Source of the DNA: Candidatus Kerfeldbacteria bacterium
Lineage (GTDB): Bacteria; Patescibacteriota; Patescibacteriia; UBA9570; XYC2-FULL-38-9
Assembly (NCBI GenBank): GCA_043813585.1
Contig: JBDRKW010000002.1
Coordinates: 19,182-83,181 of the forward strand
DNA: 64,000 bases
Direction: 5' to 3'
The notes beneath the pieces were generated by a model that saw only the letters and a list, made by a program, of their open reading frames with translations, had not been told where the DNA came from and searched no databases. Positions 3,681 through 62,160 of this stretch are shown piece after piece (positions within the stretch are counted from its first letter, which is position 1; each line of letters starts with the position of its first letter). The position numbers were made by a program, and so were the translations under genes.

Positions 3681-5690
<2,010 letters not shown>

Positions 5691-5780: not shown

Positions 5781-6275
5781 ATGGATGAACATAAACCTGA
5801 AGAGTTAGCGGAAAAATCAATGACCACGGAGCTGGAGGACGCTTCGTCACCAGTACCTCCGGAGGTTGTTGAAACCCAAAAAGTAGCGGAAAAATACATC
5901 AAAGTCCTGATTTGGCCCGTTTTCATTGCCGGCGCCTTTTTGGTTACCGCGCTTTATAATGAGAACCGCATAATGCTGGTGCTGATTACGCACGGCATCC
6001 TGATTATCCTGGTGCTGCTGGAAGCGTTCCGCGAAAAAGCAAGATGGCAGATCGCTGCAATAGCAGGTGCAATCGCCAGTGGAACCGCAGCACTCATCGT
6101 TGCAATCTGGGAACTTATTACCGACTTCACGGTACTGAACATCTTCAATTTATTTACATCAACGGCAATTACCGCAATCTTTGCGGGAATCATAACCGGC
6201 TTTCTTTTTATTGTTGTACAGCTGATTATCGGAAAAAAACAAACAATTGCGAAAGGGGGTGAGCAACATGGCTGA
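5781..6275 (+). CDS. hypothetical integral membrane protein (about 4 TM)
   Basis: The track ORF starts at 5715 inside the groEL terminator. ATG at 5781 (MDEHKPEELAEK...) follows an extended -10 TGcTATACT (5760-5768). Several hydrophobic helices. Confidence 0.5.
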   Translation: MDEHKPEELAEKSMTTELEDASSPVPPEVVETQKVAEKYIKVLIWPVFIAGAFLVTALYNENRIMLVLITHGILIILVLLEAFREKARWQIAAIAGAIASGTAALIVAIWELITDFTVLNIFNLFTSTAITAIFAGIITGFLFIVVQLIIGKKQTIAKGGEQHG

Positions 6276-6618
6276 CCAACCAACAGCACCCCAGCAACCA
6301 ACAAGCGGCGGCAACGACGCGGAAGAGAACAAGATGATGGCGGTACTCGCGTACATCGGCATTCTCGTACTCGTCCCGCTGCTCGCAGCAAAGGACAGTA
6401 AATTCGCACAGTATCATGCCAAACAGGGACTTGCTCTGTTTATCGCAGAAGTCGTCATTGGGTTAGTGGGTATTATCCCATTTATCGGATGGCTTGTGAT
6501 GTTTGTCGGATTCCTCGCCTGCCTCGTTCTGGCAATTATGGGAATCATGAATGCATTGAACGGCAAAGAAAAAGAACTTCCGTTACTTGGACCAATTGCC
6601 AAGAAGCTGAACTTCTAA
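6268..6618 (+). CDS. DUF4870-family small membrane protein
   Basis: Starts at MADQ (6268), preceded by an AAGGGGGTGA RBS. MAVLAYIGILVLVPLLAAKDSKFAQYHAKQGLALFIAEVVIG is the characteristic DUF4870 core. Confidence 0.7.
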   Translation: MADQPTAPQQPTSGGNDAEENKMMAVLAYIGILVLVPLLAAKDSKFAQYHAKQGLALFIAEVVIGLVGIIPFIGWLVMFVGFLACLVLAIMGIMNALNGKEKELPLLGPIAKKLNF

Positions 6619-6623
6619 CAATA

Positions 6624-6662
6624 AAACCCCGCACACGCATACTCGCACGTCCGGGGTTTTTT
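6624..6662. terminator. bidirectional Rho-independent terminator between the DUF4870 gene and the recA 3' region
   Basis: aaaaCCCCG...CGGGGtttttt. The GC stem has A-tract and T-tract on either side, so it can terminate both convergent transcripts. Confidence 0.6.
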
Positions 6663-6671
6663 GTATCTAAT

Positions 6672-6874
6672 TATTTATGTCAGCATTTGCTTGTGTAGCG
6701 GACTAGAAGGGCTGAGCGGCCATGGTGTCTTGCGAAGCAAGACGAGCGAAGCCCGGAAAGTCAATGAGTGAGCCTCGGTGGGGCGAACGAATGGCGCTAC
6801 AAAGCAAGATGCTGACATAAATATCGCGAAGACGAGAATAGCTCGCGGCGGTAATGTCCGGAAGGGGCTGAGCG
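6672..6874. repeat. about 200-nt non-coding element downstream of recA, bounded by a perfect 15-bp inverted repeat and carrying a duplicated 13-14 nt motif
   Basis: TATTTATGTCAGCAT at 6672-6686 has its exact reverse complement at 6809-6823. GAAGGGCTGAGCG occurs at 6706-6718 and GAAGGGGCTGAGCG at 6861-6874. Inner hairpin CTTGCgaaGCAAG. No ORF. Confidence 0.3.
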
Positions 6875-6884
6875 AGCTTCTTAT

Positions 6885-7943
<1,059 letters not shown>

Positions 7944-7985
7944 ACATGATTTATTTACTGTTTGTTTTATTCGGTCCGTCCATCA

Positions 7986-8043
7986 TAACCGAACAAAACC
8001 CGAATGTCCAGACATCCTGTGGATAACCGAACAAAACCCGAAT
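7986..8043 (-). promoter_or_regulatory. two identical 20-nt boxes (ATTCGGGTTTTGTTCGGTTA on the recA coding strand), 38 bp apart in the recA promoter; candidate SOS (LexA) operators
   Basis: Exact 20-mers at 7986-8005 and 8024-8043. The same box pair with the same 38-bp period occurs 35-92 nt upstream of lexA (32524-32581). The proximal box lies between the -35-like TGGACA and the -10 TATGAT. Confidence 0.6.
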
Positions 8044-31639: not shown

Positions 31640-32344
31640 ATGAACTCACTGCAGCGCGCATACTTCCACCTGTTCCTGGGCATGGTGCTCAAGGATGGGA
31701 TGGACCTGGACGAGGAGGCCCTGAACGGCTTCTGTATGACGATCCGTAAGGACAACGGCGAGACGACCGAGGTGGTCGAGGAGCCGGAGCCCGAAGAGCC
31801 CGCGGCGGAGCCGGAGGAGCCCGCGGCGGACGAGGTGGTCGAGGAGACCCCGGAGGATGGCGAGCCAGAGGTGGTCGACGAGGTGGCCGAGGAACCCGCG
31901 CCCGAGCTGGATGCGGAGCCCGAGGCCGAGGTGGTCGACGAGGTGGCCGAGGAGCCCGTGGCGGAGCCCGAGCCCGAGAACGACGGCAGCGACGAGGTGG
32001 TCGAGGAGCCGGAGCCCGAAGAGCCCGCGGCGGACGAGACCACGCCCGAGGAGACCCCGGAGGACGACGGCAACAACGATGCCGATCCCGCCGAGGAGCC
32101 CGAGGGTGGCGACGAGGAGACCCCGGACGAGGAAGCCCCCGCCGAGGAGCCCGAGGGTGGCGACCCCGAGCCGGAGGACGACGGCAACGACGAGGAGTCC
32201 GAGGACAACGGAGAGCCCGAGGACGAGAGCGGCGAAGACGACCCCGATGACGGGGATGGTGATGACAACAACGGCGGGGACGACGATGACCCGGCCGGCG
32301 ACGAGGACGGTGGCGACGAGCCCAATGAGGACGACGTCACCTGA
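31640..32344 (+). CDS. hyper-acidic Glu/Asp/Pro-rich tandem-repeat protein with a short structured N-terminus
   Basis: AGAGGA RBS before ATG 31640. MNSLQRAYFHLFLGMVLKDGMDLDEEALNGFCMTIRKDNGETT, then about 190 aa of EVVDEVAEEPAPE.../EEPEPEEPAA repeats. About 60-nt DNA tandem duplications. GC about 68%. Confidence 0.55.
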   Translation: MNSLQRAYFHLFLGMVLKDGMDLDEEALNGFCMTIRKDNGETTEVVEEPEPEEPAAEPEEPAADEVVEETPEDGEPEVVDEVAEEPAPELDAEPEAEVVDEVAEEPVAEPEPENDGSDEVVEEPEPEEPAADETTPEETPEDDGNNDADPAEEPEGGDEETPDEEAPAEEPEGGDPEPEDDGNDEESEDNGEPEDESGEDDPDDGDGDDNNGGDDDDPAGDEDGGDEPNEDDVT

Positions 32345-32495
32345 TCGTGGGAGGTGCCCTTGCGCACCTCCCGCAACCTGAACGAAGAGTGGCACCAGAA
32401 TTGGGGAGGGAGATGCGTGAGCGCATGAGAATCACAGTTACAGCAAACCGCAGCGCGTCTCCCATCTCCCTTCATTTACAACTCCATTTAATAGA

Positions 32496-32522
32496 AAGCG
32501 GGATCATTCCCGCTTTTGTTTA
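32496..32522 (+). terminator. Rho-independent terminator about 150 nt downstream of the acidic-protein gene
   Basis: AGCGGGA-tcatt-CCCGCT followed by TTTGTTT. A perfect 9-bp hairpin GGGAGGTGC-ccttg-GCACCTCCC (32349-32371) lies right after the stop codon. Confidence 0.65.
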
Positions 32523-32523
32523 T

Positions 32524-32581
32524 ATTCGGGTTTTGTTCGGTTATCCACAGGTAGAATTGACATTCGGGTTTTGTTCGGGTA
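32524..32581 (+). promoter_or_regulatory. two 20-nt boxes (ATTCGGGTTTTGTTCGGTTA and ATTCGGGTTTTGTTCGGGTA), 38 bp apart, upstream of lexA; candidate SOS operators
   Basis: Boxes at 32524-32543 and 32562-32581. Identical (one mismatch) to the recA promoter boxes. The proximal box is preceded by -35-like TTGACA (32557-32562). Confidence 0.6.
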
Positions 32582-32615
32582 CCCTTACTCTACCCTATAA
32601 ATAAAGGCCAAACAT

Positions 32616-33236
32616 ATGACAAAAATCCTCCCGAGGAAGAAACAAAAAATCCTCCAGTATCTCAAGGACTATATCGACGATCGCGGGTACGCCCCGACGC
32701 TAAAAGAGATCGCCGATGAATTCAAACTCTCTTCTACCGCGACCGTTCATGAACATATAGGGTATCTGGAAGAACACGGTTTTATCAGACGCAATGATGG
32801 CGGGTTGGAAATAATGGACACACAACCGGAAGGGCAGGACGAATCGTTTACAGAAGGCAGCTCCGTTCAACTTCCAATCGCCGGACTCATTACAGCTGGT
32901 GTACCGATTGAAGCGGTCGAAGATAAAACCGAGATGCTCACCGTTCCAAAAGAACTCGCACGCCGTCCGGACTGCTACGTCCTCAAAGTCAAAGGCGATT
33001 CCATGATAGAAAGCTTTATCGACGATGGAGATTACGCCGTTATCCAAAAACAGGACTACGCAAGCGATGGCGATATCATTGTTGCGCTCCTCGATGATGG
33101 TTCGGCAACTCTAAAAGAGTATCATCGTGAGAAACAATACGTTCGCCTGCAACCGCGGAACAGAAATTACGAACCGCTTCGCGTGAAAAACGTCGTCATA
33201 CAGGGCAAAGTAGTGGGAATCATCAGAAAGTTCTAA
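32616..33236 (+). CDS. lexA: LexA repressor
   Basis: 206 aa. N-terminal wHTH (YAPTLKEIADEFKLSSTATVHEHIGYLEEHGFI). Ala-Gly cleavage site (PIAGLITAG). S24 peptidase with GDSM Ser and downstream catalytic Lys. Confidence 0.93.
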   Translation: MTKILPRKKQKILQYLKDYIDDRGYAPTLKEIADEFKLSSTATVHEHIGYLEEHGFIRRNDGGLEIMDTQPEGQDESFTEGSSVQLPIAGLITAGVPIEAVEDKTEMLTVPKELARRPDCYVLKVKGDSMIESFIDDGDYAVIQKQDYASDGDIIVALLDDGSATLKEYHREKQYVRLQPRNRNYEPLRVKNVVIQGKVVGIIRKF

Positions 33237-33246
33237 AACAAAATAT

Positions 33247-33543
33247 ATGTCATTCGCAAAAAATACACCCGTACAATATCTGCCAGGTGTTGGTTGGAGG
33301 ACCGCACAAGTCATGCACGACCTGGGCGTTCACACGGCCGGCCAGCTCAACTCCATGCCTGAACGCGTTCTGATCGAACTCTTCGGCCCCAGTATCCGCT
33401 CTGTTATCAGCAGCCTGCATCTCTCATCACCCCGAAAGAATAAACAATCCGTCACGCGCGCATCATCCATCAACGCCGGTTCAAAGAAAAAGAACCTCGC
33501 GTCGAGGCTCCGCATGGCAGCAACACTCATGACGCTTCTCTAA
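33247..33543 (+). pseudogene. 98-aa ORF equal to only the thumb/HhH segment of a Y-family DNA polymerase (DinB-like); likely a truncated remnant of an SOS polymerase gene
   Basis: YLPGVGWRTAQVMHDLGVHTAGQLNSMPERVLIELFGP aligns to the DinB block IPGVGKVSAAKLEAMGLRTCGDV...LLKRFG. No palm/fingers catalytic domain is encoded upstream. Confidence 0.4.
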
Positions 33544-34340
33544 AACATGCTGCTTTGATGGGCAAACGTCTGTCCCGTTTCCGCAATATCCCAGACATTG
33601 GCAACAGTGAACTGGGATTTTTGATTATCCGCATGGCAAAACGCCTCGAATCGGTCACCGTCAAACGATAAGATTTCTATCGTATGCTTCTTCACCTCTT
33701 TGGCATTATTATCATCAACTTCAAAATAATCGATCTCCAGCTGTTCATGCCGCTTAAACGCTTCCATCAACTTATCGATGATTAACGGCGCCTGCCCCCA
33801 CTTAATTGGTATGGGGATCTGCTGACCTCCGGACGGATAGAAAATCCTTCCGTGGCGCAATCCATATTCATACACATCACGCGTCACTTTCACATCATCC
33901 AGGCAGTACTTCGAAAGGGAATCCAGGTCGCCCTCGCGATACCAGCGAATAGCATCAAGACCGCTGCCGCTCTTTCCTTCATGCAACGTCGCCTGGGCTA
34001 CATTATCAAGCTTTACCCGGTGGCCAAGCGCCTTGGTGATCTCTTCCAGAATATCCAAATGCGGCAACGTGGATAGGTCAAGCTCCTTAAAATACGGTTG
34101 CAACACAGGATTATCGAAGTGCTTCGAATTAAAACCAATCAGCATCGGCTTTTCAGTTATCATTATTTTTTCCAGCTTCGGCAAATCCTTCTCAAAAAAA
34201 CCAAACGATTTTTTCTGCGAATACGAATACACCCCGCAAAACGAGACACCAAGATCCTTCTGGCCGTTTTCTCCAACCTCGTCAAAGGTCTTCTGCGTTT
34301 CTATATCGAATACCATTCGTTGTGGTGATGTATGATCCAT
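33540..34340 (-). CDS. RNase H-like 3'-5' exonuclease (DEDD, PolB-exo/YprB-like)
   Basis: The track ORF starts at GTG 34346; ATG at 34340. Exo I motif MVFDIETQ and a downstream acidic motif (FNSKHFDNPVLQPYF). Confidence 0.6.
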   Translation of the reverse strand: MDHTSPQRMVFDIETQKTFDEVGENGQKDLGVSFCGVYSYSQKKSFGFFEKDLPKLEKIMITEKPMLIGFNSKHFDNPVLQPYFKELDLSTLPHLDILEEITKALGHRVKLDNVAQATLHEGKSGSGLDAIRWYREGDLDSLSKYCLDDVKVTRDVYEYGLRHGRIFYPSGGQQIPIPIKWGQAPLIIDKLMEAFKRHEQLEIDYFEVDDNNAKEVKKHTIEILSFDGDRFEAFCHADNQKSQFTVANVWDIAETGQTFAHQSSMF

Positions 34341-34362
34341 ATCCACTCTATCTTACTGTTAT

Positions 34363-35163
34363 TTATTCATTGATCAAGTCTTCTTCATCCTTCTGATGCG
34401 CTGCAGCGGCTTCATTCTCTGAAATCATCACTTCAACCTGCTCTTTTGCAGGGCATATAGTAATAAAATCACAATTTCTGCAATATTGATTCAGCTTCGG
34501 TTCAAATTCCTTTTCGGCCTTGATTTTTTCTACCTGCTCTTTAACAAGTTGTACGGCCTCGTCTGCCTCTTCCTGCCCAACTTCGATTGTATGCCACTGC
34601 ATAGTCTGCAAATAGAGATAACTTGCCTTTGTCACCGGTTTTTTCTGGCCTGCAGAAACGATCAGGGCATACAGAATCAACTGCAAATCGCTGATGTCGT
34701 CCTCATTATACTTGCCGGTCTTGTAATCAATCACATGCAGCGTGCCGTCTTCGAGCTCGTCCGCGCGGTCAATCCGGCCGATAATCTTCAGCTGGTCATC
34801 GATGTCCGTATCATAGTAATCTTCAAGCATCACCGGTGTTTTCGTCACATCGGTCCGGTGCACATACAAACGCAGCGTATTCAATGCCTTCACGCCCCAC
34901 TTTGCCTCGTCCTCTTTTGACGCAAACCCTTCACGATTTTCACGCCACCGCCGCCGGAGGATCTTTTCCAGCTCATCATACGTTCGTTTGTTCGGTTCAA
35001 GCTGTTCGTAAAAATCCTTAAGCGCATTATGGACATGCGCACCCATCGTCAGGTACGGCTTTGGTTTCTTGTATTCCTTATCCAGGTGGTCAATGTAGCT
35101 GAACTTATACTGCCGCGGGCAGTTCTCAAACATTCGCAGCTTAAATGGTGACGCCCGGAACAT
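34363..35163 (-). CDS. PD-(D/E)XK nuclease with a Cas4/AddB-type Cys cluster (Cas4-like, no CRISPR context)
   Basis: N-terminal Cys (ENCPRQYKF) plus C-terminal CRNCDFITICP, the 4-Cys arrangement of Cas4/RecB-family nucleases. Central ...IGRIDRADELEDGTLHVIDYKTGK has the D...ExK nuclease motif. Confidence 0.6.
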   Translation of the reverse strand: MFRASPFKLRMFENCPRQYKFSYIDHLDKEYKKPKPYLTMGAHVHNALKDFYEQLEPNKRTYDELEKILRRRWRENREGFASKEDEAKWGVKALNTLRLYVHRTDVTKTPVMLEDYYDTDIDDQLKIIGRIDRADELEDGTLHVIDYKTGKYNEDDISDLQLILYALIVSAGQKKPVTKASYLYLQTMQWHTIEVGQEEADEAVQLVKEQVEKIKAEKEFEPKLNQYCRNCDFITICPAKEQVEVMISENEAAAAHQKDEEDLINE

Positions 35164-43780: not shown

Positions 43781-44359
43781 CTATGTTATTGATAGCTTCT
43801 TTAGCGCGTCCTTCACCTGCTCTTCAACCGGAGCGTCCGAATCAATGCCATGCAGTACGTCTATAGCTTCTGACTGCGAGTACCCAAGGCCGAGCAGTAT
43901 GTCAATCGCGCCAATCTCTTTTGGAGGGCCGCCCGCAGACGATGACTTTGAATCAGACAACACGGCAATCGAATCCTTCAAGTCAAGCACAATGCGTTCT
44001 GCTGTTTTTTTACCGACACCGGAGACGCTGGATAACAACGCGACATCACCATGGATAATTGCTTTTTTCAAATCCTGCGATGCAAACTCTGATAAAAGAG
44101 CCAGGCCAAGCCGCGCACCGACGCCCGAAACCTGGATCAGCTGTTTGAAAAAAACCAGGTCATCGTATTCCGGAAAACCATAGAGATCCAATGTCGCTTC
44201 ACGGACATACTGATGCGTATACAACTCAATATCCTGGCCGGTGCGAATCTTTTCACGCACGCGATCAGGCACAAAAACCGAATACCCGATTCCCTTAACA
44301 ATAATAATAAGCCCATCCTCCTCGACGCGCTTGACTGTACCGTTTATGTAGCTAATCAT
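43781..44359 (-). CDS. ruvA: Holliday junction helicase subunit RuvA
   Basis: 192 aa. ISYINGTV...GIGYSVFVP OB domain and two HhH motifs (VSGVGARLGLALLS). Confidence 0.92.
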   Translation of the reverse strand: MISYINGTVKRVEEDGLIIIVKGIGYSVFVPDRVREKIRTGQDIELYTHQYVREATLDLYGFPEYDDLVFFKQLIQVSGVGARLGLALLSEFASQDLKKAIIHGDVALLSSVSGVGKKTAERIVLDLKDSIAVLSDSKSSSAGGPPKEIGAIDILLGLGYSQSEAIDVLHGIDSDAPVEEQVKDALKKLSIT

Positions 44360-47536: not shown

Positions 47537-48028
47537 TTATGATTCTCGTTGTTGTTGGTTGTGGAGCGCCGCTCCGGCTATCGCAATCGCTACCGCATCT
47601 GCCGCATCATCCGGCTTTGGAACCTCATCCAGCTTAAACAGTATTTGCACAATGCGCTGCACGTCTTTCTTGTCTGCATTTCCTGCGCCGGTGACGATCG
47701 ATTTCACTTCCACCGGCTTTACATCCCGTATCGGGCAGCCCTGCCGCTCCAAAATGTACAGGACGACCCCGCGCGCCTGCCCCACGGCAAACGCCGTCGT
47801 CACGTTCTTTGCAAAAAAGAGCTCCTCCACGCTCGCCAGCGCAATTTCCGGGTACTGCTTCAGAAGCGCTTCCAAATCATTCGCCAATATGTTCAGCCGC
47901 TGAGGCAGCGTCGCTTCCTGCGGCGTACGTATGACCCCGCATTCAACCAGCTCCTGAGCAGGCCCGGTAATATTCACTATTGCAAAACCCGTAATCTCAA
48001 TGCCCGGATCGATTCCCAATACCTGCAT
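47537..48028 (-). CDS. ruvC: crossover junction endodeoxyribonuclease RuvC
   Basis: 163 aa. MQVLGIDPGIEITGFAIV, VEELFFAKNVTTAFAVGQARGV, and acidic catalytic residues. Confidence 0.92.
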   Translation of the reverse strand: MQVLGIDPGIEITGFAIVNITGPAQELVECGVIRTPQEATLPQRLNILANDLEALLKQYPEIALASVEELFFAKNVTTAFAVGQARGVVLYILERQGCPIRDVKPVEVKSIVTGAGNADKKDVQRIVQILFKLDEVPKPDDAADAVAIAIAGAALHNQQQRES

Positions 48029-48036
48029 ACTGCGTA

Positions 48037-48762
48037 TTAAAGGTCAGCGTTAGTATAGACGCCGCTTACGTCATCGTCTTCCTCCAGAGTTTCTATGAGC
48101 TGCTCGCATTTTTCCGCATCCTCCTTCGGCGGAACAATCATGTTCTTCGTAATCCATTCCAGTCCGCTCGAAGCCAGCGTTAAACTTTCCTTATCCAACA
48201 TATCAACCAGCCCATTCAGCTCTTCGCGCGCACATAATATGGTCATTCCCTCTTCTTCACTGCGTATATCTTCGGCACCTGCATCAATGGCAGCCAGCTC
48301 TATGGCGTCCTTGTCCTTTCCTGCGATTTGCTCGCTTGCAATGCGCACAACCCCTTTCCGTTCAAACATGTACATCACGCTGCCGCTGCTGCCCAGCGTC
48401 CCGCCGTTCTTCGTAAGCGTGCTGCGGACGCTCGATACCGTCCGATTCGTATTATCGGTTACCCCTTCAATAATCATGGCGATGCCGCCCGGGCCGTACG
48501 CTTCATACACAACCTCTTCATACACCGCGCCCGGCACCTCGCCAGCGCCTTTAAGGATTGCTTTCTCAATACTATCTTTTGGCATGTTCGCGGCTTTGGC
48601 CTGGTCGATCGCGGTCCGCAGCGCGGGATTCATGTCCGGATCCTTCCCACCTTTTGCGGCAATGACTATATTCTTCGCCACTTTGGTAAAAACAGCGCCT
48701 TTTTTGGCGTCAGATACGGCTTTTTTCCTCTTAATTGTGGCCCATTTCGAATGTCCGGACAT
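48037..48762 (-). CDS. yebC: YebC/PmpR-family DNA-binding transcriptional regulator
   Basis: 241 aa. MSGHSKWATIKRKKAVSDAKKG...KVAKNIVIAAKGG. Confidence 0.9.
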   Translation of the reverse strand: MSGHSKWATIKRKKAVSDAKKGAVFTKVAKNIVIAAKGGKDPDMNPALRTAIDQAKAANMPKDSIEKAILKGAGEVPGAVYEEVVYEAYGPGGIAMIIEGVTDNTNRTVSSVRSTLTKNGGTLGSSGSVMYMFERKGVVRIASEQIAGKDKDAIELAAIDAGAEDIRSEEEGMTILCAREELNGLVDMLDKESLTLASSGLEWITKNMIVPPKEDAEKCEQLIETLEEDDDVSGVYTNADL

Positions 48763-48886
48763 TTTTTATGCAATCAAAAATATCGCATACAATCTACCGA
48801 ATTTTAGCCGAAAAGTCAACGCCCGGCGCTTGCTTGATTTGCCGTTTCAACGGTATCATACAGAAGTTAAGTTTTAATGAATCTCT

Positions 48887-60701: not shown

Positions 60702-62160
60702 ACGGAACCTCCGCGTCTACGAACGTGCAGATTTATATCCGCAATCTATCTCGTATTATTTTCCACTTTTTTATAGTTCTCCGGACGAACATCCCTATGT
60801 CGCAAACATCTGGGAAGTGGGGGCGTTCAAGGACGGTTATTTCTGGTGGGCGCGCGATGTAGACGAGTTGGAAAAACGGTTTCGGAAGTGGTTCGGCGTC
60901 TGGCTGGACGACCCAAAAGAACGAGCACGCCATTATAAAATGCATACGCAGGCAAGAAAAAAAATTCTTGAAGCCATTGTCTCGTTGAAGAAAAAAGATC
61001 TTACAACCGTACCGACAAAAGAGCTCCTGCATCAGTACTCGCTCCTCTATGGGCTTGCTTCGAAATTCATCCTATTTGCGGAATACACCGTTGATGTGTT
61101 TGACGATGTCTTTCATAAAATCTTTACCGAATATCTGGAATCAAACGCAAATAAGCCAATCGACTCTGCGGATCTTGCCGAGTTTATGAGGCCCGCAACC
61201 CTTTCAGCCAGTTCCGAATACAAAAAAGCGCTGTTGGAACGTTCACTGCAACCCAGCATCTTAGAAGATAATATACAAAAAACAGCAGAAAAATTCAGCT
61301 GGATCCGCATGGGATGGGACGGATCAAATGAAATAACGCAAAAGCAGGTTCGGGAAGAATTAATGGAGCTGTCTGATCTTCCGGCTGAAAAACGCGGGCA
61401 AGAACTCGAGAGTATTACAAACTATGGAGCCACGGTCGATAATAAACGCAAAGATCTTTGTACAGCATATTCCATTGCTCCCGATACGCTCTCCGGACAC
61501 TTTGACCTGCTGGACATGTTTAACGTGCTGCATGACAACCGCAAAGAGGTGCAGATGCGATGCAATCAAATCATCTACCGTGTCTTGCGTGAAATTCCAA
61601 ACCGCTTCGATGTAACCTATGAAGAAATTCTCCTCTATTTCCCGGAAGAACTGCTAGCCCTACTTGAAGAAGGTGCGCCGGTTAACACAAGTGAGATTAA
61701 TAAACGCAAAACCGGCCTGACAATGCAGATCCAATCCGGAAAAGTGCAAATCACCTATGGCGCCGATGCAAGAAAAGTACTTCAAGATGAAGTGTTGTCT
61801 GTAATACAAAGTGATGAAGCCACGGAAACCGAAGGAATTCCGGCAAACGCCGGCACTGCGAAAGGCATTGCGTTCGTAACAAAATCAGCAAAGGATGCAA
61901 ATGCACATCTTGAACAAGGAGAAATCCTCATAACAACAATGACCACCGTCGACTACCTGCCGGCCATGAAGCGGGCGGCTGCAATTGTGACAGACGACGG
62001 GGGCATGACCTGCCATGCCGCAGTGGTTAGCAGGGAGCTGGGTACGCCGAGTATCGTCGGCACAAAAAACGCAACGCAGCTGTTTACATCCGGCGACCGA
62101 GTTTATGTAGACGCAGGAATAGGAATTATTAAAAAAATAAAGGGTGCCAATCTTGATTAG
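60694..62160 (+). CDS. protein with a C-terminal PEP-utilising-enzyme mobile (swivel phospho-His) domain
   Basis: GTG start overlapping the GDPD stop. C-terminal AAIVTDDGGMTCHAAVVSRELGTPSIVG matches the PEP-utilisers GG.TSHAAI.ARE.G.P.VVG motif. N-terminal 370 aa unassigned. Confidence 0.6.
   Translation: MNKRNLRVYERADLYPQSISYYFPLFYSSPDEHPYVANIWEVGAFKDGYFWWARDVDELEKRFRKWFGVWLDDPKERARHYKMHTQARKKILEAIVSLKKKDLTTVPTKELLHQYSLLYGLASKFILFAEYTVDVFDDVFHKIFTEYLESNANKPIDSADLAEFMRPATLSASSEYKKALLERSLQPSILEDNIQKTAEKFSWIRMGWDGSNEITQKQVREELMELSDLPAEKRGQELESITNYGATVDNKRKDLCTAYSIAPDTLSGHFDLLDMFNVLHDNRKEVQMRCNQIIYRVLREIPNRFDVTYEEILLYFPEELLALLEEGAPVNTSEINKRKTGLTMQIQSGKVQITYGADARKVLQDEVLSVIQSDEATETEGIPANAGTAKGIAFVTKSAKDANAHLEQGEILITTMTTVDYLPAMKRAAAIVTDDGGMTCHAAVVSRELGTPSIVGTKNATQLFTSGDRVYVDAGIGIIKKIKGANLD

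Follow-up and report, generated by a model that had tools for sequence, protein, structure and literature searches.

Predicted direct-repeat LexA operators, with an adjoining DnaA-box consensus, at the recA and lexA promoters of Candidatus Kerfeldbacteria

Paired boxes upstream of recA and lexA

In a genome of Candidatus Kerfeldbacteria (Patescibacteria), recA and lexA are preceded by the same pair of 20-nt boxes, which raises the questions of which protein reads them and whether they represent a kind of SOS operator that has not been described before. A preliminary description of this DNA, made from the letters alone, proposed that they are a novel operator for LexA. We examined the boxes within the window (the whole 64-kb stretch of DNA that was analysed), at the lexA and recA loci of other genomes and in metagenome contigs.

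As that description had it, the 20-mer ATTCGGGTTTTGTTCGGTTA occupies four sites in the window, two before recA and two before lexA. The promoter-proximal and distal recA boxes (7986–8005 and 8024–8043, both on the minus strand) and the distal lexA box (32524–32543, plus strand) are exact copies, and the promoter-proximal lexA box (32562–32581, plus strand) carries the one mismatch that had been noted (...TTCGGGTA). Both pairs have a period of 38 bp. A search of the window at three or fewer mismatches returned nothing more, and the expected count, taken from 100 dinucleotide shuffles, is 0. The 28-mer said to be common to the two promoters, ATTCGGGTTTTGTTCGGTTATCCACAGG, is identical at 8016–8043 (minus strand) and 32524–32551 (plus strand), and the 58-bp box regions of recA and lexA agree at 52 of 58 positions. 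The boxes do contain TTCGG-N6-TTCGG, as claimed, but the bare pattern is not confined to them: it occurs exactly six times in the window rather than four, where 0.15 occurrences would be expected. One of the two extra copies lies at the yebC–ruvC promoter (48797–48812, minus strand); the other, at 60881–60896, is inside a coding region and was set aside as a chance match.

Pfam agrees with the identification of the downstream genes. The first (6885–7943, minus strand) encodes a 352-aa RecA (PF00154, E = 4.9e-137), and the second (32616–33236, plus strand) encodes a 206-aa LexA, with a winged-HTH domain (PF01726) and an S24 peptidase domain (PF00717). A promoter scan placed a sigma-70-type core promoter before recA (7982–8010, minus strand; 10/12 match), consisting of TGGACA (8010–8005), a 17-bp spacer and TATGAT (7987–7982), in line with the earlier observation that the proximal recA box lies between these two hexamers, a classic repressor position. 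The lexA core promoter is read as TTGACA (32557–32562), a 17-bp spacer and TACCCT (32580–32585), together spanning 32557–32585 on the plus strand; this −10 element is weak and falls below the threshold of the promoter scan, and its position is kept in relatives. At recA, and in this reading of lexA, the proximal box fills the whole of the 17-bp spacer. Two further possibilities were considered and rejected. No acceptable −35/−10 pair was found that would make the distal box the spacer of a second promoter, and an inverted sequence 3′ of the recA −10 element (7957–7977), considered as a third box, scored 0 bits.

A terminator-like hairpin (32494–32517, plus strand) closes the gene upstream of lexA, which makes lexA its own transcription unit. 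The gene that ends at this hairpin (31640–32344, plus strand) encodes an extremely acidic, E/D/P-rich protein of 234 aa with no Pfam match. On the other side, 10 bp 3′ of lexA, lies a 98-aa open reading frame (orf98; 33247–33543, plus strand), which is probably co-transcribed with lexA as part of a LexA-controlled operon. Its match to Pfam IMS_HHH_1 (E = 7e-6) is just under the cut-off. At two other loci (L006 and L011), lexA is followed by a gene for a full-length DinB, and orf98 aligns to the thumb region of that protein. By these matches, orf98 derives from the thumb (HhH) domain of DinB and stands alone. Seven relatives (L001–L005, L008 and L009) keep it directly after lexA at 47–61% identity, and it appears to be maintained, not decaying; at this place, other Patescibacteria have dinB, either full or truncated. 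On the minus strand, two nuclease genes (33540–35163) run towards the lexA operon, encoding an RNase-H-fold 3′–5′ exonuclease (33540–34346) and a PD-(D/E)XK/Cas4-like nuclease (34363–35163); no LexA box was found for either of them.

Anatomy and specificity of the box

The box is a non-palindromic direct repeat in which TTCGG occurs twice, 11 bp apart and in the same orientation, and the earlier account of two elements one helical turn apart therefore holds. In full it reads (A/G)TTCGG-N5-GTTCGG, that is, it belongs to the GTTC-N7-GTTC type, with 8-bp half-sites, (A/G)TTCGG(G/T)T, arranged head to tail. With an 11-bp period, the two half-sites lie on the same side of the helix, which suggests that each box would take up a single LexA dimer.

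A scoring matrix was built from 45 sites that lie no more than 300 bp 5′ of lexA in other genomes, with none of the window's own sites among them. Its consensus, CGTTCGGTTTTTGTTCGGTTA, holds 25 bits of information. The box consensus of the relatives is GTTCGGTTTTTGTTCGG, or GTTCGG-TTTTT-GTTCGG, with GTTCGGTT as its 11-bp repeat unit; the half-sites are longer than GTTC, and the centre between them is T-rich, at 1.5–1.6 bits per position in the 45-site matrix. In the window genome the first half-site reads ATTCGGGT, with ATTC and not GTTC in all four boxes, and the second tetramer is GTTC; relatives often have GTTC at both.

With this relatives-only matrix, the four boxes are well separated from everything else in the 64-kb window. 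The proximal and distal recA boxes score 30.3 and 28.5 bits, the distal and proximal lexA boxes 28.5 and 28.6 bits, and the next best score is 13.6 bits. The ordinary promoters of the window were without a box in the matrix scan. A 13.6-bit site at 44264–44284 was rejected, having only one good half-site and lying ~490 bp from the next start codon. The extra TTCGG repeat at the yebC–ruvC promoter is a doubtful fifth box, TTGAC-tt-TTCGGCTAAAATTCGG-TAGATT, at 6.9 bits. This promoter region (48794–48819, minus strand) has the frame of the SOS promoters with an A-rich centre, yebC (48037–48762) and ruvC (47537–48028) lie downstream, and five relatives lack the TTCGG half-sites at the corresponding promoter. 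Accordingly, yebC–ruvC is a weak candidate for a fifth member of the regulon.

Conservation of the box at SOS promoters

A LexA profile scan, with one genome taken per GTDB species, yielded 80 lexA loci, with Kerfeld-, Komeili-, Uhr-, Magasanik-, Falkow- and Berkelbacteria among the taxa represented. Matches of at least 16 bits cluster upstream of lexA: 61 lie within 320 bp of it, in 42 of the 80 loci, and 18 lie in the other 457 kb, most of them before a small gene that precedes lexA or before dinB. In the 45 promoter-proximal boxes, TTGA(C) stands immediately 5′ and TA immediately 3′, which is the same position in the spacer as in the window. When the two promoters of the window were aligned with those of five relatives, the proximal box, the −35 element, GTTAT-CACAGG and most of the distal box proved invariant, and the linkers variable. 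Another Patescibacterial clade has GTTCTATTTTTGTTCTAT at its lexA promoter, a GTTCTA-type box of equal period and orientation, and the Clostridia, Bacillota and Coriobacteriia loci among the 80 have the palindrome CGAAC-N4-GTTCG instead.

The recA loci of four Kerfeldbacteria-like relatives are less uniform. One (L081) has a single box in the promoter spacer and another (L084) has two in tandem, and the remaining two (L082 and L083) have no box within 1.5 kb of recA, which there follows an upstream RodZ-like gene by ~20 bp. Predicted control of recA by the box is frequent, not universal, and the two loci without it suggest that membership of recA in the LexA regulon comes and goes within the class. 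Where dinB lies directly downstream of lexA in L006, L010 and L011, it has a box of its own. The conservation that the operator reading leads one to expect is thus present at orthologous lexA, recA and dinB promoters of many related genomes.

Metagenome contigs were scanned with a composite pattern that includes the 9-mer upstream of the −35 element (see below), namely exact matches to TTATCCACA-N6-12-TTGAC-N0-2-TTCGG-N6-TTCGG, which gave at least 120 loci. Among the matches listed, at least 95 are lexA operons, six are recA (L089, L109, L172, L190, L191 and L196) and two are DNA methylases, the rest being cut by contig ends. By first downstream gene, again among the matches listed, lexA follows directly in 67, recA in six and another open reading frame in 36; of this last group, 26 belong to one unannotated family of ~113 aa and five encode 23S_rRNA_IVP proteins, lexA coming next in nearly all loci of both kinds, and four further loci turned out to be lexA.

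The number and orientation of the boxes vary across these loci. Of the 102 distinct composite promoters among the matches listed, 88 have the proximal box only, nine have a distal box 38–41 bp upstream (four direct and five inverted) and five have an inverted box 28–34 bp downstream. The tandem direct form is that of the closest relatives, at lexA in L110, L147 and L001–L003 and at recA in L191, L196 and L084. The inverted-distal form goes with LexAs of 55–60% identity, and the downstream form with LexAs of ~40% identity.

A DnaA-box consensus beside the boxes

The 28-mer shared by the two promoters had been noted as a whole, with TTATCCACAGG treated as a mere extension of the box. This part of the account did not stand: the additional letters belong to a separate element, independently conserved, that equals the DnaA-box consensus. 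The element is the 9-mer TTATCCACA, found 8 bp upstream of the recA −35 element (8018–8026, minus strand) and 7 bp upstream of that of lexA (32541–32549, plus strand); it shares three bases with the end of each distal box. It is identical to the universal DnaA-box consensus (TTATNCACA). The window holds three copies, and 0.31 would be expected.

Across the 80 lexA loci, TTATCCACA is 56-fold enriched before lexA: the 23.5 kb upstream of that gene contain 43 copies, and the remaining 460 kb contain 15, the majority of which adjoin stray LexA boxes. Among the 45 box-bearing promoters, 27 have it exact, forward and 7–10 bp from the −35 element; it is missing from about a quarter of the box-bearing lexA promoters. 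The clade with the GTTCTA-type box has the 9-mer reversed and further upstream. None was found at the dinB promoters of L006, L010 and L011, though these have a box, nor at the non-CPR lexA promoters of the 80 loci. In L081, the 9-mer at recA is TTATTCACA, the change falling on the fifth position, the only degenerate one of the DnaA consensus. The idea that TTATCCACA is a general promoter element of the group was rejected, its density outside SOS promoters being at chance level.

The distribution of TTATCCACA is what one would expect if a second, very conserved factor acted specifically at lexA and recA promoters; the obvious candidate is DnaA. The promoters examined have a single 9-mer each, with no pairs or clusters of DnaA boxes. 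In E. coli, DnaA is reported to prefer closely spaced box pairs (PMC11317965).

LexA as the probable reader of the boxes

Very probably, the four boxes are operators for the LexA encoded at 32616–33236. This conclusion, drawn from sequence comparison, combines the specificity of the boxes within the window, their conservation at lexA, recA and dinB promoters and the presence of an apparently intact, autocleavable LexA, and on these points the functional reading of the preliminary description is upheld. The features expected of a LexA operator were found together: a site in the promoter of lexA itself, sites at recA and, in relatives, at dinB, overlap with the core promoter, half-sites that suit a dimer and a cognate LexA in the same genome. 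In that LexA, Ala94, Gly95, Ser129 and Lys167 are residues that do not vary across 14 homologues; we take Ala94–Gly95 to be the cleavage site and Ser129 and Lys167 to be the catalytic dyad. The core of the recognition helix, S-x-x-T-V-H-x-H, is common to the LexAs of the direct-repeat type and to those of the palindrome type (Clostridia and Coriobacteriia), and the wing segment 'DPxKPRA' of the palindrome-type proteins is missing from the direct-repeat type. A shared helix with an altered wing suggests that the way in which a half-site is read was retained and that the orientation of the DNA-binding domains changed.

These features are consistent with the following mechanism. Each box would be bound by one LexA dimer, whose two winged-HTH domains would be arranged head to tail and not face each other, and a dimer on the proximal box, which lies within the core promoter, would exclude RNA polymerase. 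Upon DNA damage, RecA filaments would form and stimulate LexA to cleave itself at Ala94–Gly95 by means of Ser129 and Lys167, a step suggested by the conserved residues together with the established SOS mechanism, and cleavage would release recA and the lexA–orf98 operon. The distal box, confined to the closest clade, would be an accessory site. Because it adjoins and overlaps TTATCCACA, a second dimer there would probably tighten repression and/or block access to that element. The centre-to-centre distance of 38 bp amounts to ~3.6 helical turns, so side-by-side cooperativity between the two dimers is not obviously favoured.

The strongest rival to this reading is that another regulator, such as a small HTH protein, binds the boxes and controls lexA, recA and dinB, LexA itself reading something else, for example TTATCCACA. 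At lexA promoters, the 9-mer indeed varies even less than the box. However, it is the box, and only the box, that the lexA, recA and dinB promoters have in common, given the dinB promoters and the quarter of box-bearing lexA promoters that are without the 9-mer. An asymmetric 9-bp site is also ill-suited to a LexA dimer, whereas the GTTC half-site is one that LexAs with the same recognition helix read, and recognition of direct repeats by LexA has been reported for this superphylum (PMC7739468). Taken together, these points make a different regulator very unlikely.

More improbable still is that the two promoters are alike because a cassette was recently duplicated or copied by gene conversion, or because they carry a small dispersed repeat, in either case without operator function. 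The near-identity of the 58-bp regions would fit such an origin, as would the spacer letters of the boxes. Where these letters depart from the consensus, they are alike within a genome and differ between genomes, being GGGTTTTG in the window and in L001/L081, GTTTTTC in L002 and GTTTTTA in L003 and L084 (L008 was also in the compared set). This pattern looks like homogenisation of the copies; it suggests either that or co-adaptation with the LexA of each genome. Against this origin, five of the six differences between the 58-bp regions fall in the linker that joins the 9-mer to the −35 element, the boxes and both of these elements being kept, and the same architecture recurs at orthologous promoters of genomes whose LexA is only 40–70% identical. 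Nor do the boxes behave as a mobile element: the four copies in the window all stand at SOS promoters, with no copies elsewhere in it; viral contigs scanned with TTGACNTTCGGTTTTTNTTCGG gave 0 matches, which argues at that stringency against a phage-borne box; and an Rfam scan of the whole window matched no family, so that no known RNA element explains the repeats.

That the box is a promoter-spacer or DNA-shape element, a T-tract serving polymerase activity and not a repressor site, is hardly credible: its T-rich centre is strongly conserved and the box always lies within the spacer of the main promoter, but the distal, inverted and downstream copies have the same sequence outside any spacer, the yebC promoter, which has the same frame with a different centre, is not conserved, and the ordinary promoters of the window lack the box. 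A sequence that is kept while its number and orientation vary points to a protein-binding site rather than to a promoter element or a mobile repeat, and we retain LexA as the probable reader.

Relation to known LexA boxes

The boxes had been called novel, and this claim is not supported. A 2017 study by Sanchez-Osuna, Barbe and Erill (Environ Microbiol 19:3465) reportedly described the SOS network and LexA motif of Patescibacteria, and is said to have combined comparative genomics with in vitro binding. According to a later article by the same group, direct-repeat recognition by LexA evolved independently several times, and the 2017 study is cited there among the cases (PMC7739468). The host of the window is itself a Patescibacterium, so that direct-repeat recognition had already been reported for its superphylum; its LexA, RecA and YebC each match proteins of a Candidatus Kerfeldbacteria MAG at 100% identity. 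The boxes of the window share with the 2017 motif the superphylum and the direct-repeat form, and their targets, lexA and recA, are those expected of a core SOS regulon.

GTTC-N7-GTTC is the known direct-repeat LexA motif of Alphaproteobacteria (and Acidobacterium) (PMC8565304). The preliminary description had correctly remarked on this likeness, the consensus of the relatives being literally GTTCGGTTTTTGTTCGG: the direct repeat, the 11-bp period and the GTTC core are common to both. The boxes of the window differ in their longer half-site, TTCGG(G/T)T, in a conserved T-rich centre and in the ATTC of the first half-site. From its sequence, the predicted operator is a Patescibacterial version of the GTTC-N7-GTTC LexA box, not a new kind. 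The nearest non-CPR LexAs retrieved are of the Clostridia, Bacillota and Coriobacteriia types, which have palindromic boxes, and the likeness to the alphaproteobacterial box is therefore probably convergent.

Two other systems invite comparison. The Gram-positive SOS (Cheo) box, CGAAC-N4-GTTCG, has the same GAAC/GTTC half-site, is read through the same S-x-x-T-V-H-x-H helix and likewise overlaps the core promoter of lexA and recA, but it is a palindrome where the boxes described here are direct repeats, and the 'DPxKPRA' wing occurs only with the palindrome type. The Balneolaeota LexA motif, TTACACATATTTTWTACATA, is likewise a non-palindromic operator of ~20 bp that was found by comparative genomics, and it has experimental support (PMC7739468); its sequence is unrelated and it comes from another phylum, itself poorly studied.

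The predicted operator would thus be one more instance in which LexA has exchanged a palindromic target for a direct repeat. The series from the palindrome of Clostridia through GTTCTA repeats to TTCGG repeats could inform how the DNA-binding domains of a repressor become re-oriented. The box could also help to delineate the SOS regulon in an uncultured Kerfeldbacterium; this regulon is very small, and within the 64-kb window it would comprise recA and the lexA operon with its 98-aa DinB-thumb open reading frame, and possibly yebC–ruvC.

Possible two-input control and further genes with composite promoters

Of the elements described here, only the DnaA-box consensus next to the predicted operator could point to something new. 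We tentatively propose, as less likely than not, that in Patescibacteria the core SOS promoters, namely that of lexA and that of any recA under such regulation, take two inputs, a LexA direct repeat and a single perfect DnaA box at a fixed place shortly upstream of the −35 element, with the second LexA box of Kerfeldbacteria overlapping the latter, so that DnaA and LexA would compete or cooperate on the same 60 bp. If this were true, replication status would be coupled to the SOS switch in minimal genomes, and a link through DnaA would join replication initiation to SOS control in bacteria with a very small set of regulators. There is a partial precedent in E. coli, where the SOS promoter of uvrB has LexA boxes and a consensus DnaA box and is co-regulated by both proteins (PMC6015884). 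That case concerns one peripheral SOS gene, whereas here the consensus appears to be a fixed feature of lexA and recA promoters across a superphylum.

Among the genes other than lexA and recA behind composite promoters in the metagenome contigs, two kinds may be mentioned. The first is the ~113-aa family of one Patescibacterial clade, represented at no fewer than 26 loci (L085, L105, L108, L116, L119, L126, L127, L132 and L143 among them), whose members have a hydrophobic N-terminus and no Pfam match and are encoded by the first gene of the LexA-controlled operon, directly before lexA. In position and size, they recall the small SOS-induced membrane proteins that inhibit division elsewhere. 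The second is DNA methyltransferases: at two loci with no lexA nearby, L135 (~5844–6900) and L169 (~3991–4900, minus strand), the full composite promoter, with 9-mer, −35 element, box and TATAAT, stands before a methyltransferase gene, the enzyme being a C5-cytosine methylase in one case and an N4/N6 methylase in the other.
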